In this document: positions 38,580 to 60,754 of the stretch, piece after piece | Layout of the letters: every line of letters begins with the position of its first letter | Numbering within the stretch: the first letter of the stretch is position 1 | NCBI GenBank assembly: GCA_044892525.1 | Contig: CM097887.1 | Coordinates: forward strand, 109,842,397-109,906,396 | Source: Schmidtea polychroa | Taxonomy: Eukaryota | DNA: 64,000 nt | Direction: 5' to 3' | The notes under the pieces: generated by a model | What the model saw: the letters and a program-made list of their open reading frames with translations, nothing else | The model's database searches: none | What the model was told of the DNA's origin: nothing | Made by a program: the position numbers and the translations under genes

Positions 38580-38904
38580 CTCCCTATAAAAATCTCTAGA
38601 TTTTATCTCTATATTTTCTATTAATGCTTTGTAAATGTATGTATTGATACCGCCTTCAATCTTGATATTATTTAATCCGAGAACTTGTTTGATATCGTAG
38701 AATCTGGTTCAACCAAATCCTTTTTATCTTCATCTACAACCTTGATCTGAACAATCAATAAAGTATCGTTCAAATCCAAATATTCAGATATTTCTACTAT
38801 CAGTAATGGAATTCATTGGAAATACTTCTTCAAAGGCCCCAAATTCAATTATTGCATGGGGATAGTCGATCAAATATACACAATTCCAATTTATCGCAAA
38901 TCAT
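38580..38904 (-). pseudogene. Polinton major capsid protein (hexon-like) N-terminal fragment
   Basis: MICDKLELCIFD...IIEFGAFEEVFPMNSITDS...EYLDLNDTLLIVQIKVVD...GGINTYIYKALIEN resembles the Maverick MCP pattern KSELDLF...EYxP...YIDLxxTxLxV...YPYRAYIE. Confidence 0.75.
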
Positions 38905-38981
38905 TGTTCATATACAGTTCCATATCCTTTCATCCGTTTGTTTATATGCGATGACCGGTGTTTCCTACGTCTTGGACCATG

Positions 38982-40898: not shown

Positions 40899-41460
40899 TT
40901 ACTTGACCAAATCTTTTGCTAACATCCATGTTGGGTTTGGATATTCAACGCACTTGACATAGTATTGTTTTTCCTTGCCTACCTTGATAGTTTTCAAATT
41001 TTCTGGATTCTGAACATTGTAGGTTGTGGGATAACTTGTAATTCATGCTCATAAAATTTCCCGTGTACAACATTATTATCACAGTCTTTAATGACATACA
41101 TAACAGGATACTATTTTACACTAACTTTTGAAATAACAAAAACTTCATCATTCCAATTTGTATCGAAATATTTGATGAATGGTGATGCTCTAATTTCACT
41201 AATTCTAACATGATAACCGACTTTATATTTCGATTTTATAATTTTTTTAACTTTTTAGAAAGAAATGAATAAACTGAACTTTTCGATGAGATATCTACCG
41301 GTTTCAATCCTTTTAGACCTTGCTATGATGAATGATTATAATTTTAGGCAAAACGTGTATCCATATTTTATTACCTTGGTGTACAAAATATTTCTTCAAT
41401 CTATCTCCCAATGTCCGATTAAATCTCTCGAAATTGGCGGTTTGTATTGAGAATGTACTG
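40899..41460 (-). pseudogene. Polinton retroviral-type integrase, C-terminal part with chromodomain
   Basis: VRISRASPFIKYFDTNWNDEVFVISKV...GKFYEHELQVIPQPTMFRIQKI...KQYYVKCVEYPNPTW matches the Maverick integrase pattern VRIS...NWTEE.F...G.FYEEELQ plus chromodomain. Confidence 0.8.
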
Positions 41461-43594
41461 AGTAATGATTTATTTTAAGACGATCCAAGATTTGCTTATC
41501 ATATTAAATCATATTAATTCATTTATTTAAATTAAAAAATAATTAGAAATAAATAATGAAAATTTAAATATAGATGATTTTTTATTTTCTTTATTATTTT
41601 CTTACTAAAAACTTACTATATACATTTTGAGTTGACCGTCCATTAAACTCTACAAAATGACACTTGCAATACACTTCTAATACCTTGGATTATCACAATA
41701 AACATTTGGGTACCCTGATAAAAGCTCTTCAAAATGAGCCATTGGTCGCCAAAATACTTTGTCAGGAATTCTCAATAATTAATTTTAAGTTAGTGAACCC
41801 CTACTTTTAAAGTCTATCTGGCCTACATAATTTTTTATAAAAATTTTCGATTCTTAAATTTGTTGAATTATTCTTTATTTTATTGTCCATTACACACATT
41901 TACGCATACGGTGAGCTTTTCTAGCCCCGATATATTTTTCTTACATGACCTACTTTAGGTTTTACTATTTACAACTAATTCCGAAATTTAGTAACTTTAT
42001 AGTATAAAAAAAATCAATAAATTTATAGTATTACTTGTGTGTAGAAATTTATTGTTCCGAATTTTAATAACTTTATTATAAGATTTGTGAAGGTGAGAGA
42101 AAAATAATTGAACATACCAACACAAAACACATAATGAAAAATGTATGCAAATTTATTATAGCGTTTTTTGTTCCGAAATAAATAACCATTAACATATTGT
42201 TAAAATATAATTATTTTGAAATTATTAAAAAATTATGCAGGAAATACTTTTAATTTAGAATCCAACAGCTCTACCTTGAGCTTCAGAGAAAAAGAAGAAA
42301 GTACATCGTAAAATTTAATTATAAAATAATTTAGAATATAAACTTTCTTTAGATTCACAGATATTTCCTTTTCGCGAAGTTGAAAATCTGACAATGTAAG
42401 ATTTATTCATTAAATTACAAAACATTAAAATATTTCTGTTAGCAATAGGTGTGAAAGGTGCAATTCATCACCAATTAATTATAGGATCATACAAAAAGGA
42501 TACCTACCAAAATGTGCTACAGAAAGAAGATTATAAAAATTTTAAAAACTATTTCATACATGTACACCGCTTCTTTCCTAATTGTATTAAAAAAATAAAT
42601 GTCTTCGGTGATTAGTTTATTTATTTATAGTTAAAAATATATCAAACTTACATTTTATCGAAATAATTCCAAATAAATTCATAAAATGTCATAAAATTCC
42701 TAAAAAAACACCTGAAATTTAATTATCAATATGTTATATTATAAATGCTGACTAACAGTAATATTTAAAAACTTGAATAATAATCGTATAATTATATTAA
42801 ATTAAAATTCCAGTCTTAAAAGTTACTTGAAATTAAAAAAAATTACCTCAAAACCATTTTTAAGAAATTGAATAAATGAAGTTATTAACTTCATTTTTAG
42901 GTAAATGGTTAGTCACCTCAACTAGTGTGTAAACCAACGTGAATTAAATTAAATTACTAATTAATTAAATTGCTAAATTTCGGAATTGGGTGTATTGACA
43001 CTATATAGTGTGTGTATTTTACCTGCTTTGAGTTAGCGATCCCGTGCTTTTAAAGTTGATTTGTCTAACTTGAAAACTGGGAAATTTCGTGAAAAAAATT
43101 GAAAATCGGAAAAAATTAGGGTTGACCTACATAAAAATACGAGGAATTTGAAGGGGAGTGGTATGTAAGTTAGCCGGCCCCTATCCATCTACTAATATCA
43201 TTAACTAAATCTTTATTTTTATAATAAATCCCTATTTTCTGATATTATCTTATATTATTAATTTTTTTAATTTTTTTAATTTGAATAAGATTATTTGTTT
43301 TAATGTTAATTTTTATATTTTATATAATAATTTGTTTTTCATAACATCCACTGAATATTATACAGTATGATCCTCAATCACCTCTATATATTTCGGTCAT
43401 TTTCACATTCATATTATCATTTACATGTTAATTCATTACTATATACAAAATTTGAATAAAAAAATAAAATAAAAAAAGTATTATTTATAAAATATTTGAT
43501 AAAAAAAATGTTGAGCTTCAATATTACACATAGATCATTAAATAAAACATTTTATTACATAACTTACATAAAATTTACATGCTATACTTTAGAG

Positions 43595-44859: not shown

Positions 44860-45960
44860 TTCTAAAATTTTAAATTTAAAATCATTTCGGTTGCTCATAA
44901 TATTCTCTTGGCTATTTAACCTGGACTTAAAGTAGCTAAAATATTCCTCTACAGCAGGGATATTCAACTGGCGGCCCGCGGGCCTGATCAGGCCCGCCGA
45001 AATTTGAAAAAGGCCCTTTCAATATCTTGGAATATTACACATATAAAAATATTTTGTGATATCTGCATATCTGCATAGTTTTTAATTGATACGGCCCTCG
45101 ATTGCCGTTATAAGAAAAATTTGGCCCTTCATAATATTTAGTTGAATACCCATGCTCTATAGGATTTAACTGTGGATAATGCCATGTTGATTAAATAAAT
45201 TTATTATATCACTTCTTTTGTGAAATCTACAATTATCAAGGACTAAAACATTATTAGGATGCATTAGGAAGTCTGGTATCAAAAATTCATTTATAAATTC
45301 AATAAATACAATTCCATTAAAAGAACCATCTTTTACTTTAAAGCCAATTATTCCTAATTTTTTGATTGCTACCATGCAAGAAATGTTAGTACCTCTTTTC
45401 GATTTAACAATTTTAAAAGCTTTACAATTCTTGGGAGAGTAGCCATAGTTTCTGCTATGGTGTAGATTTGCATCATTTTCATCTAAATTCCATATGCCTG
45501 TCGGAGATTTATATATTTTTCTGAATTTCGATCTTCATACACCCGAAATAATCCTTTCCAAGTATACTCCATTGTTTTTAAGTCCCTCCATATAGTACTT
45601 TGCGATTTTCTAATCCAAGTTTTCTCAGTTCAATTTAAATTTTGTTGGGAAAAAGAAGAATCTTTCAATAAAAATTTGGATATTTTCGTTTTTGCTATGC
45701 TTTTATTTTTAACAGGTCTTATTGTTTCTTCGATAAAATTTGTTCATTTTTCATACCTTCTGAAATTTTATGGACAATATTGTATGCTGTTTCTAAGGAT
45801 ATATCAGCATCTTCGGCGATATTTTTAATAGAAAATTCTTTTTCTAACCCTTTTCTAATCCTTTTCAATATATCAACTGATATTTGTTGCTTAGGTTTTC
45901 TGGCTTTTCTTTGGCTTTCGTTTGATTTAAATTCTTCTGCGTTTATGTTTTAGTCCATAA
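44860..45960 (-). pseudogene. IS630/Tc1-type DDE transposase pseudogene
   Basis: HTH-like N-terminus (SIKNIAEDADISLETAYNIV), DENDANLHHSRNYGYS, KDGSFNGIVFIEFI...VLVLDNCRFHK, VEEYFSYFKS; interrupted by the 44955 MITE. Confidence 0.75.
44955..45154. mobile_element. hAT MITE
   Basis: TIRs CAGGGATATTCAACT / AGTTGAATACCCATG, TSD CTCTACAG / CTCTATAG (7/8), GGCCCG subterminal motifs. Confidence 0.88.
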
Positions 45961-47467
45961 AATATAGGTATTTTTAATGGATTATGAATTTTAAAAAATA
46001 GTAGAATTAGGATAAATTGATGTTTTATTTAACTTAGTAATGGTATTTTTTTATTTAAATTTTCTATATATTTATGAATAAATCTGTAACTAATATTTAA
46101 AATATTGTATTGCAAAATAAAGATAAATATTTTTAATAAATGTTTTAATAATTTTAAAAAACTTGTTTAAATGAATTATAGAAAATCTTTTAAATTACCC
46201 TCATTTTCTTTCATTGAAAAAGCAATTATCCGAACGAATAATAAAAGTTATTTAATAAATTAAATGGATTTAATTTGGATTAAATTGCAACTTAAAGATT
46301 CTCCTCATTAAATTTTTAACCGTCCTTTAATGTCCCGGGAAAATGTTAATTTTTAATTAGATTTAATTAGATTTTTCTTAAATCCCTTCCATATATTTGC
46401 AAAAAGAAAATTTAATCATTAGAAATAAATTATTTTTAGCATACAATCATTTTAGAATATAAAATTTTTCAATTATAAAATTTATTAAATTATAATATTT
46501 TTTATTAAAATATTTAACAAAAATATATAAAATTAAATTTTAAATAATATTTATATATTTTTGCATATAGGAAAATAGAATTGTCTTCATTAATTTTTAA
46601 TCTGAAAAGAAATTTAGATAAAACGAATTGTTAGAAAACAGATCAAAGGTAAACAAAATCAGGAGAGGGCAACAATATCATTAAATCAAAAGAAGAAAAT
46701 TTTGGGAAAACATACCCACAGAAAAGTGGTGTGCGAACAATTAGTATCAGGTTAACATGCCAAGGAAACTTTGATAGATTTATAAGGTGTGATTTTGACT
46801 GGTATCAAAACTGATAAATAGTGATATACTAACAGATAACCATTACTTTTTGCTCAAAAAACCACGAACCAGAAGGCTTGGCCTAAAATACATGAGATTC
46901 CGGTTAAAAATTAATTTGGAAATTACGCGCAGACTGAGCAAATGAGATAACGAAACACAAGAACCTTTATAAAATTAGTGCCTAAAAGATCAAATGCAGT
47001 TGGAAATAAGAATTATATAGTTCATTATAAAGCGTTTCTGGGCTTAACACGACTTTTAGATCCAATTTTGTTACATTGCTTTTTTGTACTATTTTTGATT
47101 GGTTCATAAATGAGTTTTTATCGGTCATTTTTTGGATCAGTTTATGTGAAATTTTAGTTAATTCAAATGTAGTTATATTTTTTAAAATTTGTGACTTGAA
47201 TTGAGTATGAAAAAATCAATTCAAATTTGCGTAATATCAAATATTTTTAAAATTATTAATTTTATTTTTATATTTTTGAAAATTGTAATTTTTCATTAAT
47301 TCAAATTAAAACAATAAAATCAAGTGTTTGTAAAAATTTGTTAAAATTATTTAATTTACAATTATTTTCCCTTGGAAATAAATCTAACCAATGAAATTAT
47401 TTGAATTTTATATTCCGCATGTGGTATAAATATTCTGACATTAATGAAATATGCAAAATTAACATAA

Positions 47468-48372
47468 TGGTCAACTGTTCTTACGTACGAAAAATTCCAA
47501 TACATTATCCGGATTCAGGCTTTTATATCTTTTATGGGATAATTTCTTTGACTTCTTTGCTTGCCAATACTTTCCTCTCTTATATGTACCATAAACAGGA
47601 AAGGAAAGTGCTTGGGAAACGAACCACTTTCAATCATATCATGAAGTTTCTCAACATAGCGGACATTATGATGGCTTTTGTTTTAATTGCCAATCTTGTG
47701 ATTTTGAACATATCTTATTGGTATGTGTATTCAAGTTTTGTATTGTTTTATAGCGTTCGTAATATTGTAATAGGTTTGGAAGTCGTAATGTTGTTGCTGT
47801 TGGCTCTCGACAGGTTGATAGCATTCACATTGCCGATGACCACGAAATGGATTAACAAAAAAGTTAACATTGTTATAATTATTTATTTTGTTGGAATTAT
47901 ATTTTATGATGTTACTGTCAATATCATTTTCATTTTCATCCCTTTTTGTGAACTTAAACCATTCATCCAAACTATTTATATTATGATTTATGGTGGTGCA
48001 TGTTTATTCTTTTTACTCGTAAATATTTTCATTTATTTTGTTTTGTTTATCATGTTCTATATGCAAACAAGGAAAATGAAAAAGGATAAAATAAATAATA
48101 TAAATCTAGAAAGTGACGCAAAAATCATTAAATTTGGTCGTCATTTATTTGCAATTACCTTTATCTATACTTGTTGTTTCATACCGATCGTTTTATGGAA
48201 TTCAAATGCAGTTTTATATGTTCCGTTTTATGTTTATTACTTCTTTTATTTAAATATTATTATGAATCCCTTTATTTTTATTTTGGGTAACAAATCTATT
48301 AAAGTTTATTTGTGGAGAATGTTTTCGAGAAATAAAATCGAGCCATTTCGTTTTCAGTTCACTAAAAGTTAA
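47468..48372 (+). CDS. Intronless class A GPCR, recent duplicate of 28577-29482 (301 aa from the ATG at 47468)
   Basis: MVNCSY start homologous to the 28577 gene; the ORF track start at 47401 is a TTG upstream; the duplication extends ~600 bp into the 3' flank. Confidence 0.9.
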
Positions 48373-51256: not shown

Positions 51257-53159
51257 CTCTAATAAATCAGAATCTTTATCAATATTATTTTCATTATCTT
51301 ATTCTGAATCTTTATCACTATATATACGCTAGATCAACAATGGCGAACATTTTTAACAAGGGGTTCACAATTGAATTTATTTTTTGAATATATCAACCTA
51401 CTGGTCAAGTATTATTTTATTTATTAAAAATTTAACAAAAATTCATGTAAATATAATATGATTTTATTTATTATACATTAATTAGGTATATTCGAAATCA
51501 TTCGTATGATGATAATTTTATAATTAAAAAAACAAAACAACTTGTTACTTGAATTGGTTGCGTGGGGCAGTGTCTGAACCGTGGGTCATAGGTTCGCCGT
51601 CGCTGGGCTAGATTAATAATTACGAATGAAGAATATTATAATTTAAATTTTAATTAAAATTTTATTTCATTATGAACTAGCAGTTCTAGTAAATTTCATT
51701 TTGAAAATATTTAATTTAACATCTTACTGACAATTTATAAGTAAAATATTCGATTAAACTAATCTTTATGCGCTACTATCTTTTTCAGTTATCACTTAAA
51801 TTGTTATAAAATATAATTAAAAATTATTAAAATTGTTGATTAAAGAAATTTGTGGAATATAAATGTCGAGAAATGACGTTTTGAAAAACACTTAAAAATT
51901 GTATATATTTTTCGACTTTATGAAAAATTTTAATTTTAATTAATAATGGTGGAAATAAATTGTGTAGTTTGATTATGATGGGGGTTAGGGTTATTACAAT
52001 ATTACAATTTATTTTATTTTGAGAACTAACGTCAATTTATATTTTTTAGACTTGTAATTGTTGCTCAATAAATACTATTTGTTTTTATTGGACGCATTTC
52101 TGGAAATCCCTGGAAAGGTTTGTTCAAATTATTTGTGGTAATTCTGTATTTGTAATAAACTACAAAAATAAATGAAAAAAGTAACCTTTAAGTTTCTTGT
52201 ATTTTAAATTCGATTGTAAAAGTCGACAACAAAATATACAGATCACGATAAAAGAGTACAATATAATATTTCATGCATAGTTTTTTTCGATATATTTCAG
52301 ACATTTGACATTTTCTTCAGAATAATGAACCCATCGACCTACTTATTTATTTATTAAATCTATATGACCTAAGTAGATGGATAGGGCACCGCTAGACCAG
52401 GACTCCGCTGGACCACATACCCCCCCCCACCCCCACTCTAAGGGAAATTTTTAAAATTATTTTCAAGGTCAAATTTTTTAATGTAAAGTTCATTTTTTTT
52501 TTTAAATTTGAAATTTGAGAGTTCCCGACAAGAGATATTATTATTATTTGAAAATAAAGGTCTTTGAAACACAGGGATTATTATTATATATATCCTAGTC
52601 TATCCGACAAAATATTTTGTCCCCCTATGGGTATTGTTCACAAAGGTACTGGTCATATTCCACATGTCGCGAGGGTATTATNNNNNNNNNNNNNNNNNNN
52701 NNNNNNNNNNNNNNNNNNNNNNNNNNNNNNNNNNNNNNNNNNNNNNNNNNNNNNNNNNNNNNNNNNNNNNNNNNNNNNNNNNNNNNNNNNNNNNNNNNNN
52801 NNNNNNNNNNNNNNNNNNNNNNNNNNNNNNNNNNNNNNNNNNNNNNNNNNNNNNNNNNNNNNNNNNNNNNNNNNNNNNNNNNNNNNNNNNNNNNNNNNNN
52901 NNNNNNNNNNNNNNNNNNNNNNNNNNNNNNNNNNNNNNNNNNNNNNNNNNNNNNNNNNNNNNNNNNNNNNNNNNNNNNNNNNNNNNNNNNNNNNNNNNNN
53001 NNNNNTTAGTTTTCATAATAAATTAAGACATTAAAAGATATATTGAATCACAGATCAATTCGATAACAATACGTCATCTATATCAATATCATTGGCATCA
53101 TTGGCTTCATTGTCATCATCATTGAAATCTGGACTCATTCCGCTAAAAAGTGGACGAAT

Positions 53160-56100
53160 TTATGAAATTACTTGATCAACATCTGGAACATCGACTCCTA
53201 AATAATGTCCATATGCGAGACTAGTATTAGGACCCACCCAAAGGCGCTTGTCATCGTTGTTCGACAAGGCTATTTTATTATTTTTAAAAGTAAAGAGCTG
53301 GTGGTTTCTTGTTCCTATTCTCGTTTGTGGCACCGTATATACTACGCTGTTGTTGTAGCAGTCTAAATACGACTGGTGCCCTATCTCAGTATTACCAAGC
53401 TGAACTCCCTTTGCTTTTAAATGATCTTTATCCCCTAACAAACTATAACACTTAGGTCTTAAGAAAACCCATTCCTTATACCCTAAACCTTTACTCTCAT
53501 CCTTAAACTTCCCTATCACAGAATCAAGGTTTCTAGAGTATAAGGGATGTGCTGGGTCATAGTTGCTAGTATCTAAAAGATTATCACGAATCATTGCCGG
53601 CAAAAGAGTGTCAAGCTTACAATGCTTTATCTCTAAGAAAAAGGAGTCAGTGTCACCGGCAACGATATTTATATCACAATTAAATTTAGACCTGTACTTG
53701 GCCAATTCCACATATTGTAGTTGATACATTCTTAGTTTAGACAAATCTAACACTGTTTGACCAATATAGCTAGGCCTGTCTAAACATATAGAATCTTTAT
53801 CCAGATGAGCCACAATCAGATCATCAGCAATTTTGATAGATTTTCTGAAAGTTGGCTTTGAGGCATATACAATCATCTTTTCAGCTGAATTGCATAGCCT
53901 CAAATTCATCCTTTTCTTTAAGTTCTCAACGGATTTCCCATATAAGCTGTTGTTATAAAGCTTAAACAAATCTCTATATAACTCACTGGTGGATTGTGCT
54001 CTTGATGTTGTGTTTTTATCAATGTACGATTTAAAAATGGGTGCTTGCGTGAATTTAACTGCTCTATAAATTTTAACCACCGTCACACCGAGTGAAAGAT
54101 AAAGTTTAAGAAGTCTCCAATGAAGAACATAGTTCTTCTTTGGCCAATGCGTGAGCATCAGCTTCTCGACTTTGGAGTTCGGTGGACACATCTTTTCCGC
54201 AGCAATAGGAAAGTCATTAAGGAAGTCATGCAAGCATTCGGGTATATCGATATCAACTTCCATAGTATACCCATATGGAAGGTTATCAATATCATCATTC
54301 ACAAATTCAGAAAGTATAATATCCAAATCACCATACACCCATACAAAGTCAGCATAAGGCAGATTTTGGCTTAAGGCCCAACCATACAAGTTATTAATAT
54401 ATATGTACAAGAGTTCAGTGTCTTCAGAACTAGCAACATAATGTTTGTTAACAAATGTTAACCCACCCCGTATCCCTCCTTCATAGAAATTAAACATTTC
54501 CATGTCCTGCAAAAGTTCTATGGGTTCCGTTAATGTCATAAGCGCTGAGGCCCATGACATACCGGGAATGCCATAGAAATTAAGAGGCTCAAGACCATTG
54601 TAAGCAATGGCCTTTGCACGGAATTGTTGAAAATAGTCTGCGAGGAGAAATACATCTAATTTAAGGTAAGTTAACATGTAATCTAACATGTTGTTGCAAT
54701 TTTGCTGAGTCCAAATAACTTGGGCTAATGCATACTCATCATTAGACACTGAATCCCAGATCGGAGGTAGTTCATATGTAGTCTCAAGAACATCAAATGA
54801 GGTAGCGAAGTCATATGGAAAGATACCTTTGGATCGAACAATTGCGCCATCAAAAACAGAAGAAGTTAAAGGCAGATCGGAAAGAGTCTTAACCGCTTTT
54901 GCTAAAGATGAATTAACAAACTGCATGCTGTCAATAAAACGAACAGGCAATTTGTTAATATACGCAATGAGGGAGATGAATTTTTCAGTAGTAGTCGGAA
55001 TAATATTTAATTCCCAAGAAGGAAAATTATTCAAGCCATATTTCAAAATATGATGGAGATCATATCCCCTCAAATTGTGAAAAACAACAGGTAACTGTCT
55101 CTGAATTCGCCGAGACACATTACATTTCCTACAAGCAGCACCAAGATACTTGCCTGAGAAGTGGCAATGGTCCCTAACTCTATCTCTAATGAATTTTTTA
55201 CAAAGGTAACAGGTTCTGGAATCTCTATATGCCCGCTGTTGAACGAAAGACAAAGTTTGAATAGGTTTTCGCCCATTAATTTCGTAATATGGCAGGACAA
55301 TTGTGACAGCAATTTCCTCCACCTTACGCAAGAAAGACAACACACAATCATCACCAACAAACTCATAATAAAATCTAGTTTTATTATAATTATTAATTAA
55401 TAACATGCCTGCTGTTATTGGCAAGTGCTTTTGATGGTGTATTATATCCTCAGGTAAAATTGCCTCAAAATCGGCATATATCACGAATGGCGGGGTGATT
55501 GTCGTCGCATAATTTTGAAAAATTAAATTTTTCTCCTTAGGTAGTGTGTATAATGTAGTACCTATCTGGTTTTTTATGCATAAGGCGACATGAATATCAA
55601 ATGCATTTTTATGTCTAAAACCATTGAGACAATGGGGACACCAGTTCACTCTAATCCAAAGGTTGCAGGAGCTACTGGGATGTGAGTTCATTAATTTTTG
55701 TAAGTTAAAAACTGCGGTATAATGGAAATTATCACCGTCTTCCAATAATAATAAATATATGGGTTCACCACCTATAACCTTAGATCGGTGAATAATATCT
55801 AAATGAGGATGATGGGGAATATAGTTACTATCATCGTTTTCTATAGGCTTAGCTGGGGTCTTTTTATAAATTAAAACATTTATTGATAAATTTAAATCCT
55901 TGTTTTTCCTTTCAAATTTAGGGATATCACATAATTTCATGGGGCAATCATCTATGGGGTCAAAATTTAACTCGTCAAGATAATTTTCATAGGAACTAAC
56001 ACGATTTCTATGATGACGTATAACATTACGTTTTAACAGTGCTAAAATACTATAGATAAAGCACATATCATCGGTGTTTTTGACGTTTACTATTGCTTTT

Positions 56101-57010
56101 TAAGAATTTAAAGCTGATGGGGTGGGTATATAACTATGTCCAGCTAGCCTATTCATATGGGTAAATTTTGTTAATATAAAATCTATCTCTTTGATTTTAA
56201 CCACCCGCCATCCGCTACCCAAATATGTGAATTTTTCTATTTTCTCATTTAACTTAGTGATACCCTCTACTAGAAAATTTTCTGAAAAAACTTCTGCGCT
56301 ATTAGAGAAAAAATTATCTTTAATTTCCCCATCTTTTTCGAATTGGATTAAAACGGTGAATTGTATTTTAACTGTGCCCATACCTACGATTTCGGCAATT
56401 AATTTATTTATAATTTTATTTGTAAGGGAAATTTGCACCAAGTTATCCTTTTCCATATTAAAGCGTAAATTTTTTCTCGCCCCTTAAAATCGACTTCTAT
56501 TTCTGGTTCATCGTCAATATCGATAGAACTCTTATTATTTACTGAACCACCTATTTGATTATATACGGAAACACCAGTTGTATTAATTTTAATAATTTTA
56601 GAGGGAACACCAGACCCAAAACTAACAGCAGGCTGTTTATTATTTAGAATATTATTTATTTTAGTATTTAGATTAGTATTATTTACATTATTATTTACAT
56701 GTTTTGTATTATTATTTATAGGTTTTGTATTTATGTGTTTTGTGGTATTATGTGTTGATTGTTGTATTTTAATAAACAATTTCTTTTTATTTAAAGAGAA
56801 CCGATTTAAATGTGATTTGTGAATATTATAAAACTCTATATATTTAATGCTTTGGGAAGTCTCGCATATTGGACATATAAAGTAGTTGATGCCAAAGAAT
56901 CTATGACCGTAGTATTTTTTCATATTTTTATGGCATATATTTGTATGATCATTTGATGACATGCAGTAGCGTGGGTATAATTTACCTGATAAATTATAAA
57001 TATATATCAA
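53160..57010 (-). pseudogene. Protein-primed family B DNA polymerase with EndoVII-like zinc domain; three point lesions
   Basis: 968-aa ORF (YADFE, RDHCHFSGKYLGAAC, FHNLRGYD, KLYNNSLYGK, AGDTDS, LRPKCY) is in frame with ORF 56100-56456 across one TAA, and joins ORF 56408-57010 after a 1-nt deletion at ~56480-56483; motif A Asp is Tyr. Confidence 0.92.
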
Positions 57011-57349
57011 ATATATTAATAGATTTAAATATTAATAAAATATTGCATTTATATTTAATGACTTTATTAACAATTCTTAAGCCGTATTTATCGCATAATA
57101 ATTATAAAACGGAATAATAATCGGAATACATATATAATTTATTGTAATATTATCATTATCAGAGGTATAAAATATGGGAGATATCATAAATATTATTATA
57201 ATTGTTATTATTATTATTATATCTAATATTACTATTTTTTTTTAATATTATTATTAGAGAAAGTAGTTGCGTGCTCAATGCAAACTATGTTTCACAATTA
57301 ATATTTTCAAAGTATTATTTCTATTCAATTATTATTTTCATAACAACTT

Positions 57350-57770
57350 ATTAATTTCAACATCATTTTCAGGAACATATTCATATTTGTCATAATTTTC
57401 AGATTTTTCATAATTTTTTATTTTTTTTTTCAGAAAAATTTTCATAATTTTCAGGAACATTTCAGGATTTTCATCATTTTCATTATAATTTCAGGAACAT
57501 CTTCATGATTTTTCAGATTTTTCATAATTATTTTCAAAAACATTTTCATAATTTTCAAGAAAACATTTCATTATTTTCAACATTTTCATAATTATTTTCA
57601 CAAAAATTTTCATATTTTTCATAATTTTCAACATTTTCATAATAATTTCAGGAACATTTTCATAATTTTCAGCATTTTCATAAGTTTCTGGAACATTCTC
57701 ATAATTTTCAACATTTTCATAATAATTTCAGGAATATTTTCATCATTTTCAACATTTTCATAATTTATAT
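57350..57770. repeat. Degenerate 8-20-bp tandem repeat (TTTTCATAA / TTTCAGGAACA) between PolB and the acidic gene
   Basis: Direct reading; a similar repeat borders the gap at 58540-58633. Confidence 0.85.
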
Positions 57771-57840
57771 GTGGTTATTAAACAAATTAATTATCAAACA
57801 CAATTTTTAATTAATTTAAAAAAATAATAATAAAATATAA

Positions 57841-58335
57841 CTAACATTTTGATTCTATATCGGAATCATCCTCAGATTCATCCCCATAAGAAACGGAGGC
57901 ATGATTAATTTCCTCCTCAATAGACGTGAGGGCATATTCACCAGAAACATTATTAATATTTGGGGCATATCCAACATTTGAGGTATCATCACCTTAAGTT
58001 TATGTAATTCATTAATTAAATAAAATAAATTTACCCATTGATTCCATGATAATATCTCGGGTATTGTCTTCAATAACATTTTCACCGTCATTAATAGGCT
58101 GATCAACTAAATAATTTTATTTTCAATTAAATTTTAAAAATAAATTTACTTAATAAAATATCTTCTTCATCGTCACTAATAATAATTGGCTGATCTTGAT
58201 TATAGTTGTCGGCCTCGGTGACTTCATACCATAAATTCTCTAAAATAATAAATAATAATAATAATAAAAATAAAATAATTTACCGTTTTCTCCTGCCAAC
58301 ATGGCGCGTAAAATATTATCTAATTCACTGTCCAT
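57841..58335 (-). CDS. Spliced gene for a 121-aa acidic protein of unknown function (exons 58335-58284, 58239-58150, 58106-58035, 57992-57841)
   Basis: Three GT-AG AT-rich introns of 44, 43 and 42 nt, all phase 1, give MDSELDNILRAMLAGENENLWYEVTEADNYNQDQPIIISDDEEDILLIDQPINDGENVIEDNTRDIIMESMGDDTSNVGYAPNINNVSGEYALTSIEEEINHASVSYGDESEDDSDIESKC* with no internal stop. Confidence 0.75.
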
Positions 58336-58893
58336 TTTTAATCAAAATTTTTTAGTCTAAAATTTGTAAAATTTAAAAATAATTTTGACGATTTTGAAAA
58401 TTGTAACTGCTTATAAAGAAAATGATTATTTTCCGGTCCAATCAAAATCAAGGAAGGGATAGGACAAAAATACATTACGTTGTGGTATTTTAAAACTTAA
58501 ATATATATTTTAAAAACACATTTTGACACTAAATTTGATTTATTTAAAATTTTCATAATTTGCATTAATTTCATGAGTATTTTCAATATTTTCACGATTT
58601 TCAATATTTTCATGATTGTTTTCTTCAAAAATCNNNNNNNNNNNNNNNNNNNNNNNNNNNNNNNNNNNNNNNNNNNNNNNNNNNNNNNNNNNNNNNNNNN
58701 NNNNNNNNNNNNNNNNNNNNNNNNNNNNNNNNNNNNNNNNNNNNNNNNNNNNNNNNNNNNNNNNNNNNNNNNNNNNNNNNNNNNNNNNNNNNNNNNNNNN
58801 NNNNNNNNNNNNNNNNNNNNNNNNNNNNNNNNNNNNNNNNNNNNNNNNNNNNNNNNNNNNNNNNNNNNNNNNNNNNNNNNNNATAAAATGAAG

Positions 58894-59500
58894 AAAACAT
58901 GTGTGTATTACACACAACATACGAGTCATAATTTTTAATCAAGCTATTTTATAGAAAATTAAATTTTATCTATATAATATATGAATAAAAATCCAAGGAA
59001 ATTACGTTAACGTATAATAAATACAAATTTATCATAAAAACATGTGTGTATTACACACAAAACAAGATATATAATTTCTAATCAATCCATTTTATAGAAA
59101 ATTAAATTTTATCTATATATATTATACGAATAAAATCCTAAGAAAATTACGTTAACTGTTTGAAAAATACAAATTTATTGTAAAAACATGTGTGTATTAC
59201 ACACAACATACGAGACATAATTTTTAATCAAGCTATTTTATAGAAAATTAAATTTTATCTATATGTTATATGAATAAAATCCTATGAAAATTACGGTTAA
59301 TGTATGAAAAATACAACTTTATTGTAAAATCTTGTGTGTATTAAACACAAAACAAGATACATAAATTTTAATCAAGTTATTTTATAGAAAATTAAATTTC
59401 ATCTATATATTATATGAATAAAAATCCAAAAAAATAACGTTAACCGCGCGAAAAATTACAAATTTATTGTAAAAACATGCGTGCATTACACACAAAGCAC
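58894..59500. repeat. ~145-bp tandem array (4 units plus a partial) with an imperfect palindrome
   Basis: Core CATGTGTGTATTACACACAA at 58898, 59041, 59187, 59331, 59476 (spacing 143-146 bp). Confidence 0.92.
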
Positions 59501-60754
59501 CAAACTGAAATTGTAATTGCGCCATGTTGTAGAGAATGTAATTCTGCCTATACATGGTTACACTTAAATCTCGATCAGACCTGTTAAAAGTGACAAAAAA
59601 GAGTAAAAACAGTAGAGTAGATGGTAGTGGACCATCTAGACCAGGNNNNNNNNNNNNNNNNNNNNNNNNNNNNNNNNNNNNNNNNNNNNNNNNNNNNNNN
59701 NNNNNNNNNNNNNNNNNNNNNNNNNNNNNNNNNNNNNNNNNNNNNNNNNNNNNNNNNNNNNNNNNNNNNNNNNNNNNNNNNNNNNNNNNNNNNNNNNNNN
59801 NNNNNNNNNNNNNNNNNNNNNNNNNNNNNNNNNNNNNNNNNNNNNNNNNNNNNNNNNNNNNNNNNNNNNNNNNNNNNNNNNNNNNNNNNNNNNNNNNNNN
59901 NNNNNNNNNNNNNNNNNNNNNNNNNNNNNNNNNNNNNNNNNNNNNNNNNNNNNNNNNNNNNNNNNNNNNNNNNNNNNNNNNNNNNNNNNNNNNNNNNNNN
60001 NNNNNNNNNNNNNNNNNNNNNNNNNNNNNNNNNNNNNNNNNNNNNNNNNNNNNNNNNNNNNNNNNNNNNNNNNNNNNNNNNNNNNNNNNNNNNNNNNNNN
60101 NNNNNNNNNNNNNNNNNNNNNNNNNNNNNNNNNNNNNNNNNNNNNNNNNNNNNNNNNNNNNNNNNNNNNNNNNNNNNNNNNNNNNNNNNNNNNNNNNNNN
60201 NNNNNNNNNNNNNNNNNNNNNNNNNNNNNNNNNNNNNNNNNNNNNNNNNNNNNNNNNNNNNNNNNNNNNNNNNNNNNNNNNNNNNNNNNNNNNNNNNNNN
60301 NNNNNNNNNNNNNNNNNNNNNNNNNNNNNNNNNNNNNNNNNNNNNNNNNNNNNNNNNNNNNNNNNNNNNNNNNATAATACCCTTGCGACATGTGGAATAT
60401 GACCAGTACCTTTGTGAACAATACCCATAGGGGGACAAAATATTTTGTCGGATAGACTAGGATATATATAATAATAATCCCTGTGTTTCAAAGACCTTTA
60501 TTTTCAAATAATAATAATATCTCTTGTCGGGAACTCTCAAATTTAAAATTTAAAAAAAAAATGAACTTTACATTAAAAATTTTGACCTTGAAAAGAATTT
60601 TAAAAATTTCCCCTAGGGGGGGGGGGGGGGGTTGGGGGTATGTGATCCAGCGGAGTCCTGGTCTAGCGGTGCCCTATCCATCTACTGACCTACTTATTTA
60701 TTTATTAAAATTTATTAAAAATTTATTTATATATATTATGTGTTTATGACAAAG

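Follow-up and report, generated by a model that had tools for sequence, protein, structure and literature searches.

A stretch of 64,000 nt of the Schmidtea polychroa genome, here called the window, harbors a Polinton-type element in which four short exons lie upstream of the gene for a family B DNA polymerase (PolB). The original prediction described these exons as a complete gene for a highly acidic protein of 121 amino acids, and the question raised by the locus is whether such a gene exists or whether the exons belong to the polymerase. Comparison with related elements of the same genome makes it likely, as far as sequence can tell, that the four exons represent a spliced 5' coding leader of the protein-primed PolB gene and not a separate gene; if a variant with an additional short product is included, a spliced leader of PolB becomes very probable. 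The system does not constitute a new class, and the proposed stand-alone DNA-mimic gene is probably nonexistent as such.

The element and its relatives

The element spans positions 52372 to 60686 and contains leader exons, PolB, and repeats alone. Its boundaries and larger components are as follows.

52372..53005, plus strand: left terminal inverted repeat with an AGTAG... end, partly N, preceded by the target site duplication (TSD) GACCTA
53160..56985, minus strand: main exon of the protein-primed PolB, broken in this copy by one frameshift and one stop; the fold matches adintovirus/MELD PolB
58894..59496, no strand assigned: 144-bp tandem repeat inside the element, from repeat detection
60050..60686, minus strand: right terminal inverted repeat, partly N, followed by the TSD GACCTA

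Terminal inverted repeats, a 6-bp TSD, and a protein-primed family B polymerase are traits of Polintons/Mavericks, and 6-bp duplications were also present at three of nine other regions examined. In contrast to autonomous Polintons, no integrase, ATPase, protease, or capsid genes were found between the inverted repeats, parts of which, together with one inner stretch, read N. Since these genes are missing here but present in the related families B and J, the element is regarded as a non-autonomous derivative. Family B consists of full Polintons with integrase-chromo, A32 ATPase, protease, and capsid-position genes, whose PolB shares 84% DNA identity with that of the window's family (A). Family J is a full Polinton of the same PolB lineage (60% protein identity in PolB). 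Genes of the B-type integrase, capsid, ATPase, or protease were likewise not detected in the 60 loci L001 to L060, 40 of which comprise only 1.5 kb of flank, and family A looks like a deletion derivative.

Many copies of family A are head-to-head palindromic, or partly so, in the order PolB-leader, leader-PolB (for example, L041 to L043, L048 and L049, L052 and L053, and L059 and L060), and one palindromic dimer examined carries a 6-bp TSD at its outer ends, suggesting that such dimers originate from fold-back during protein-primed replication. At 59619-60686 of the window, the terminal motif recurs inside the element (AGTAGATGG) and is turned toward the right end, so that the last kilobase on the right may form a small inverted-repeat unit of its own. 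One other copy of the element starts at this inner motif and has a 6-bp TSD.

The J and B loci L075 and L076 versus L114 to L116 share capsid-position proteins of at least 98% identity, but their PolBs and leaders differ, which indicates an exchange of the polymerase module. In the B loci L109 and L113, the adenain-type protease gene, located just after the capsid-position gene, seems to begin with a short exon followed by a 46-nt phase-0 intron; a short first exon also seems to be present in the J loci L095, L107, and L108, but there only an intron of smaller size would be in phase. The genome is also rich in a second Polinton lineage, which is distant from the first (L061 and L062, L052; L079 to L082; L077), with a PolB of about 27% identity, a DJR capsid, and a phospholipase-A2-like domain; it accounts for 126 scored capsid matches, and a Met lies near the start of its PolB frame. 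Outside the element, the window contains relics resembling the family-B integrase and capsid-position genes (40997-41497 and 38610-38952), a DDE_3 transposase fragment (45166-45534, minus strand), and a hydrophobic, receptor-like host open reading frame of 325 codons without a Pfam match (47395-48372, plus strand).

Anatomy of the probable leader exons

The leader region reads as follows on the minus strand.

58410..58442, minus strand: putative promoter upstream of exon 1, an inverted CCAAT box plus a TATA-like box
58284..58335, minus strand: leader exon 1 (E1), 52 nt, ATG, 17 codons plus 1 nt
58240..58283, minus strand: intron 1, 44 nt, phase 1
58150..58239, minus strand: leader exon 2 (E2), 90 nt, with the motifs LWYEVTE and PIIISDDEED
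58160..58189, minus strand: SIM-like motif PIIISDDEED within E2 (hydrophobic core, Ser, acidic run), conserved as PIIISD[DE] in A, B, and subfamily B'
58107..58149, minus strand: intron 2, 43 nt, phase 1
58035..58106, minus strand: leader exon 3 (E3), 72 nt
57993..58034, minus strand: intron 3, 42 nt, phase 1
57846..57992, minus strand: leader exon 4 (E4), whose last nucleotide is the T that would start a Cys codon
57841..57992, minus strand: E4 with intron 4 retained, 152 nt from 57992, the frame closing at TAG 57843-57841
56986..57845, minus strand: predicted intron 4 of phase 1, 860 nt long, with the ends GTTAGT..TTATCAG and occupied by degenerate tandem repeats

With intron 4 retained, spliced E1 to E4 amount to 366 nt, i.e., 121 codons plus a stop, and the product is strongly acidic, with 33 D+E and 3 K+R among 120 residues (28% D+E). 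Introns 1 to 3 are all of phase 1 with the pattern GTAAAT..AG, and their GC content of 0.05 to 0.12 compares with 0.32 to 0.40 in the exons. A chain of at least three introns and at least 100 open codons arose in none of 300 dinucleotide shuffles with GTAAAT donors, in none of 300 with GT[AT]A[AGT] donors, and in 1 of 100 if any GT was accepted. The four exons, the GT-AG phase-1 introns of 44, 43, and 42 nt, and the open acidic frame of 121 amino acids are confirmed together with their coordinates. GT-AG ends, compatible phases, and retention across copies, which characterize spliceosomal introns, are found for introns 1 to 4 at the sequence level.

The CCAAT and TATA-like boxes, about 27 to 32 nt apart, stand before the leader in all four groups (A, B, B', and J), and inside the long intron ATTGG/CCAAT is absent from A and J and occurs once in B. 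The intron sizes had originally been compared with those of a host SLC35F6 gene, which a motif search of the window did not locate; at 42308 and 42396, however, the window has short stretches of 45 and 47 nt that are candidates for host introns.

A predicted fourth intron between leader and PolB

The stop that seems to close the acidic frame overlaps a fourth phase-1 donor (T|GTTAGT), and 860 nt downstream a phase-1 acceptor at 56987-56986 opens the PolB frame. Both sites had been overlooked. In family A, the donor T|GTTAGT is present in 30 of 30 loci and the acceptor in 27, the other three extending beyond the locus end. Family B has T|GTTAGT in 32 of 35 loci, GTTAAT in 1, and GTAAGC in 2, some places being represented twice. 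Subfamily B' has the donor T|GTAAGC in 30/30, whereas T|GTAAGT occurs in all 14 J loci with a whole leader, among 21 examined. The phase-1 acceptor at the PolB start is shared by A, B, and J; the overlapping stop exists only in A and B.

The strongest argument for the predicted intron 4 is a Cys codon that would be completed by the last junction. PolB begins with a Cys/His module, in 34 of 35 copies of which (28 of the 48 outside hits retain the N-terminal half) a Cys stands 5 to 7 residues before the second Cys; the 35th copy is cut off. The genomic frame of A, B, and J reads Gly in this column. Each family has T as the final nucleotide of its last leader exon; joined to PolB, this exon alone gives Cys, and the other donors give Gly or Ser. 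Conservation of PolB begins at the acceptor, 20 codons ahead of the first Met common to A, B, and J, and purifying selection acts on the 19 codons that separate the acceptor from this Met (pS 0.57, pN 0.17). Neither B nor J has a Met in this interval.

These features bear directly on the reading that the exons are a small acidic gene in their own right, whether for a DNA mimic, for a histone chaperone, or captured from the host, and that no splice connects them to PolB, which would be translated from an internal Met. Such a gene would account for an open frame of 121 codons that is closed by a stop and encodes 28% D+E, and PolB has Met codons 9 and 21 codons after the acceptor. The first of these is family A's own, several outside hits are annotated from the later one, and in 20 of the 48 the module has no N-terminal half or the protein starts at the later Met, so that translation of PolB from an internal Met is possible. 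But a stand-alone gene does not account for the retention of the donor, for an acceptor whose phase fits it, for Gly in a column where Cys is conserved, or for the selection upstream of the shared Met. Since the donor is conserved while the stop is not, and since the junction would supply the conserved Cys of PolB, the interpretation as a complete gene of 121 amino acids is probably wrong, and we consider it very unlikely.

The specific functions originally proposed for such a gene have found no support. A DNA mimic or histone chaperone would be expected to have a fold that presents acidic residues at regular intervals or a known chaperone domain; Pfam gave no match for E2 or E4, and a non-acidic leader occupies the same slot in J. 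All homologues found adjoin a Polinton PolB directly on its upstream side, so that a captured host gene is unsupported; when exon 4 was compared with longer proteins, in itself a weak search, it yielded eight candidates, none with E ≤ 0.01, and thus neither a host homologue nor a family.

The preferred reading, a leader spliced to PolB, has to be weighed against a second alternative, a dual output in which mainly the acidic protein of about 121 amino acids is made (intron 4 being retained or polyadenylated) and less often the fusion of leader and PolB. The weak donor would ration the polymerase, and the short protein would act as an early, E1A-like motif hub or as a SUMO decoy. As a donor, GTTAG(T) is weaker than GTAAGT and brings an immediate stop in A and B, which counts against the preferred reading. 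The immediate stop within the donor in A and B and an AATAAA in their long introns, at +423 (A) and +375 (B), are consistent with this scenario, as are the conserved motifs WY[EQ]VTE, PIIISD[DE], and ALTSIEE. However, reading through the donor in B' adds at least 10 mostly hydrophobic residues of intron type, and J also reads on into such residues; the J intron examined lacks AATAAA, a hexamer that is common in AT-rich DNA. In favor of the dual output, the leader occupies the position of the adintovirus "Oncoid", as far as this is covered by the part of PMC8502044 considered here, but it contains no LxCxE, CR1, or CxxC according to exon translations read by eye. We regard the dual output as rather unlikely.

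The long intron itself ranges from 531 to 916 nt in family A. Its repeats at 57365-57766 were rejected as a further coding exon because of this variation and the lack of a TTYAG acceptor. In comparison with mononucleotide shuffles of this repeat DNA, YAG is depleted in the long intron of A (5 versus 18.5 expected) and in J (0 to 2 versus 12 to 19), yet in J the other strand is low as well, and B shows no depletion (17 versus 19.5). On the negative side, the genome gave 0 matches to a pattern representing the last A junction without its intron, and among 3521 near-length candidate proteins for PolB residues 15 to 330, none with E ≤ 0.001 was obtained and no spliced protein was retrieved.

Conservation and selection across copies and subfamilies

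A search with the exon region returned 832 candidates for family A; 40 were scored (95 to 100% identity), and the best 30 of these 40 were examined. All splice sites and the frame are retained in 24 of them, and 6 are broken. Sequence variants among the family-A copies are neutral (15 synonymous and 71 non-synonymous distinct variants, ratio 1.1), as expected from drift after insertion. The intactness of the exons next to a damaged PolB, as originally noted, carries no weight, because the variants are neutral and many copies have an open PolB frame. Of the three PolB lesions first reported, a comparison with another copy showed two: the frame shifts at about 56,470-56,490 and is interrupted by a stop at 56,100-56,102. 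The third was not found.

Between the subfamilies, selection is purifying. The pooled leader exons of A and B' give pS 0.62 and pN 0.25 over 75 codons, and those of B and B' give pS 0.33 versus pN 0.18 over 102 codons. Exon 1 is identical in 12 of 17 residues between A and B' (pS 0.67 versus pN 0.20), and exon 4 is the least constrained (dN/dS 0.60 to 0.78). The dN/dS comparison suggested for this locus has two outcomes, purifying selection between subfamilies and neutrality (1.1) among the copies of family A. A, B, B', and J all stem from one genome and are not independent evidence.

In family B, PolB is likewise preceded by four exons of phase 1; their product can be aligned with that of the window's exons, and the inner introns lie at different positions. 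The A-B leader alignment scores 117, compared with a mean of 23 and a maximum of 63.5 in 500 shuffles, and WY[EQ]VTE, PIIISD[DE], and ALTSIEE are motifs common to the two. In B', intron 1 varies from 38 to 74 nt, but E1 stays at 52 nt in 30/30 copies, and the exon lengths keep the frame in 28/30. The leaders of B, B', and A look mosaic, exon by exon. In family J, three phase-1 exons fill the same slot; this leader is neither acidic nor alignable, so that acidity is not essential.

Chance open frames, or a decayed region copied along with the element, would fit the neutral variants within family A (ratio 1.1) and the 6 broken copies among 30, but not the result of 0/300 shuffles and the purifying selection between subfamilies, and neutral drift is expected in inserted copies anyway; that the exons are non-functional is extremely unlikely. 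The original idea of a sequence adapted to host splicing is supported: the coding region belongs to the element, its predicted introns are of host type, and it is conserved, with purifying selection acting between subfamilies.

The predicted polymerase polyprotein and its outside relatives

Upstream of the polymerase proper, three regions can be delimited in the main exon.

56762..56985, minus strand: N-terminal Cys/His module, C..C..H..C plus CPxC..H..H, likely zinc-binding, the first Cys being absent from the genomic frame
56157..56486, minus strand: alpha/beta domain at the place of the terminal protein (D1), modeled from another copy; terminal protein by position, following the part of 10.1101/2024.03.18.585575 considered
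55695..56120, minus strand: OTU-like protease domain, matching OTU structures with Z 4.4 to 7.0 (model residues 124 to 267)

The best fold matches are the PolB N-termini of Drosophila-associated adintovirus 2 (E 2.8e-19) and of MELD virus, whereas PF03175 gave no match for the A or B PolB and a weak one for the relative P0027. The Cys/His module folds with pLDDT values of 80 to 96; fold searches in PDB and BFVD returned none with E ≤ 0.001 (best Z 2.8). The best PDB matches of the alpha/beta domain are Y-family little-finger domains (Z 8.5), and its designation as terminal protein (D1) follows from position only. The OTU match is middling (best Z 7.0, rmsd 3.1, 94 aligned residues), and about half of the 50 matches listed are of OTU type. 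When the D1/OTU alignment was compared with PDB sequences, no match fell below E 0.1.

A profile of the N-terminal module (HMMER) identified 48 proteins among 1.84 billion. In 13 of these (P0016, P0017, P0021, P0023, P0026, P0028, P0031 to P0033, P0035, P0036, P0042, and P0046), the pattern [GS]-[KNT]-hydrophobic follows the Cys/His module immediately and the protein ends 1 to 46 residues further on, an ending typical of gene predictions that read on into an intron of phase 1. In P0039, an uninterrupted acidic extension precedes the module; an Atlas look-up for this protein returned clusters without names at 0.90 and, more weakly, leads of C2H2 type. No related locus among viral contigs was confirmed, and the one locus from a metagenome scan, L180, was dismissed as a false match, as it carries a bacterial-type methyltransferase gene.

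Possible functions of the leader

The motif PIIISDDEED has the hydrophobic core and the acidic/phosphorylatable flank of a SUMO-interacting motif (SIM) and fits a parallel SIM with a CK2-type Ser. Parallel SIMs, as defined in the part of PMC12751080 considered, combine a core with Ser and an acidic tail; the putative motif resembles them in its PIII core, the following Ser and acidic run, and its location in a likely disordered region, but its pattern is loose. A scan of 51 proteins gave SIM-like matches in 5 of them. In J, as well as in the hits P0005 and P0025, such a motif lies downstream of the Cys/His module, which suggests a mobile motif of the PolB N-terminus. Our tentative proposal, for which we claim less than even confidence, is that the leader provides the start codon and a fast-evolving, disordered docking tail, whose SIM-like motif would bind host SUMO in the nucleus. 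An anti-silencing role through this motif is possible.

In the proposed mechanism, transcription would start from the CCAAT and TATA pair and yield one transcript with the ATG in exon 1, from which host splicing would remove four introns, the last junction supplying the first Cys of the module. The product would consist of about 120 acidic residues, the Cys/His module, a linker, the domain at the terminal-protein position, the OTU protease, and the polymerase. OTU cleavage of the PolB polyprotein has been put forward as a hypothesis in the part of 10.1101/2024.03.18.585575 considered. Here, it would leave the leader on the terminal-protein part, which would prime replication and stay on the genome ends, and the element would borrow the integrase in trans.

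A more far-reaching, doubtful version is that the weak, stop-bearing donor serves as an adenovirus-like switch between a free acidic, SUMO-binding anti-silencing protein and a tail on the genome-linked terminal protein, which would hold the element at SUMO-rich sites of the nucleus during replication; PolB N-termini built by splicing would then be widespread in this lineage and missed by open reading frame annotation.

Comparison with known systems

The PolB of Polintons/Mavericks (adintoviruses, Eupolintoviridae) is protein-primed and has N-terminal terminal-protein and vOTU domains, according to the parts of PMC8502044 and 10.1101/2024.03.18.585575 considered. The element agrees with them in its inverted repeats, 6-bp TSD, and PolB with an OTU-like domain, but differs in that its PolB appears to need four host-type introns, the last one splitting a conserved Cys codon. 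The core genes of vertebrate and nematode Mavericks are reported to be intron-free in the sections of PMC8097293 and 10.1101/2022.07.12.499685 covered. Introns reported in this class, as far as the sections covered go, comprise introners in dinoflagellate eupolintoviral proviruses (PMC12166617), intron-bearing cargo genes in nematode Mavericks (10.1101/2022.07.12.499685), and group I introns in cryptophyte PLVs (PMC12220804). In contrast to these passengers, cargo, and self-splicing introns, those described here would be spliceosomal, apparently required for a core replication protein, and inherited across subfamilies.

In the E2B mRNAs of adenovirus, the main exons for pTP and Pol are joined by splicing to shared exons that lie upstream (PMC11304566, in the part considered). 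The predicted arrangement is alike in that small upstream exons would be spliced onto a distant main exon for terminal protein and polymerase. The differences are that pTP and Pol are separate in adenovirus, whereas here about 120 codons on four exons would precede a fused polyprotein, and that the element is an integrated Polinton derivative. The upstream coding part of adenovirus comprises a few codons only. Like the Oncoid of adintoviruses (PMC8502044, in the part considered), the leader is a small motif-bearing frame with acidic CK2-type sites directly upstream of PolB, yet it appears to be spliced into PolB.

A description of a spliced Polinton PolB leader was not found in the portions of the Polinton, Maverick, and adintovirus literature covered; Repbase reports and supplements may contain annotations of such exons. 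No relevant statement occurs in the parts of PMC10748475, PMC6431247, and 10.1101/2024.03.25.586562 considered.

Implications

The very young, high-copy families make the junction directly testable; among the 40 B copies that were scored, 12 show 100% identity. If the spliced leader is real, its variable sequence would be a natural place for host-interaction motifs. Since Polinton core genes are annotated by open reading frame, the N-termini of their polymerases would be systematically mis-annotated. These Polintons would furthermore depend on nuclear host splicing, as adenoviruses do.
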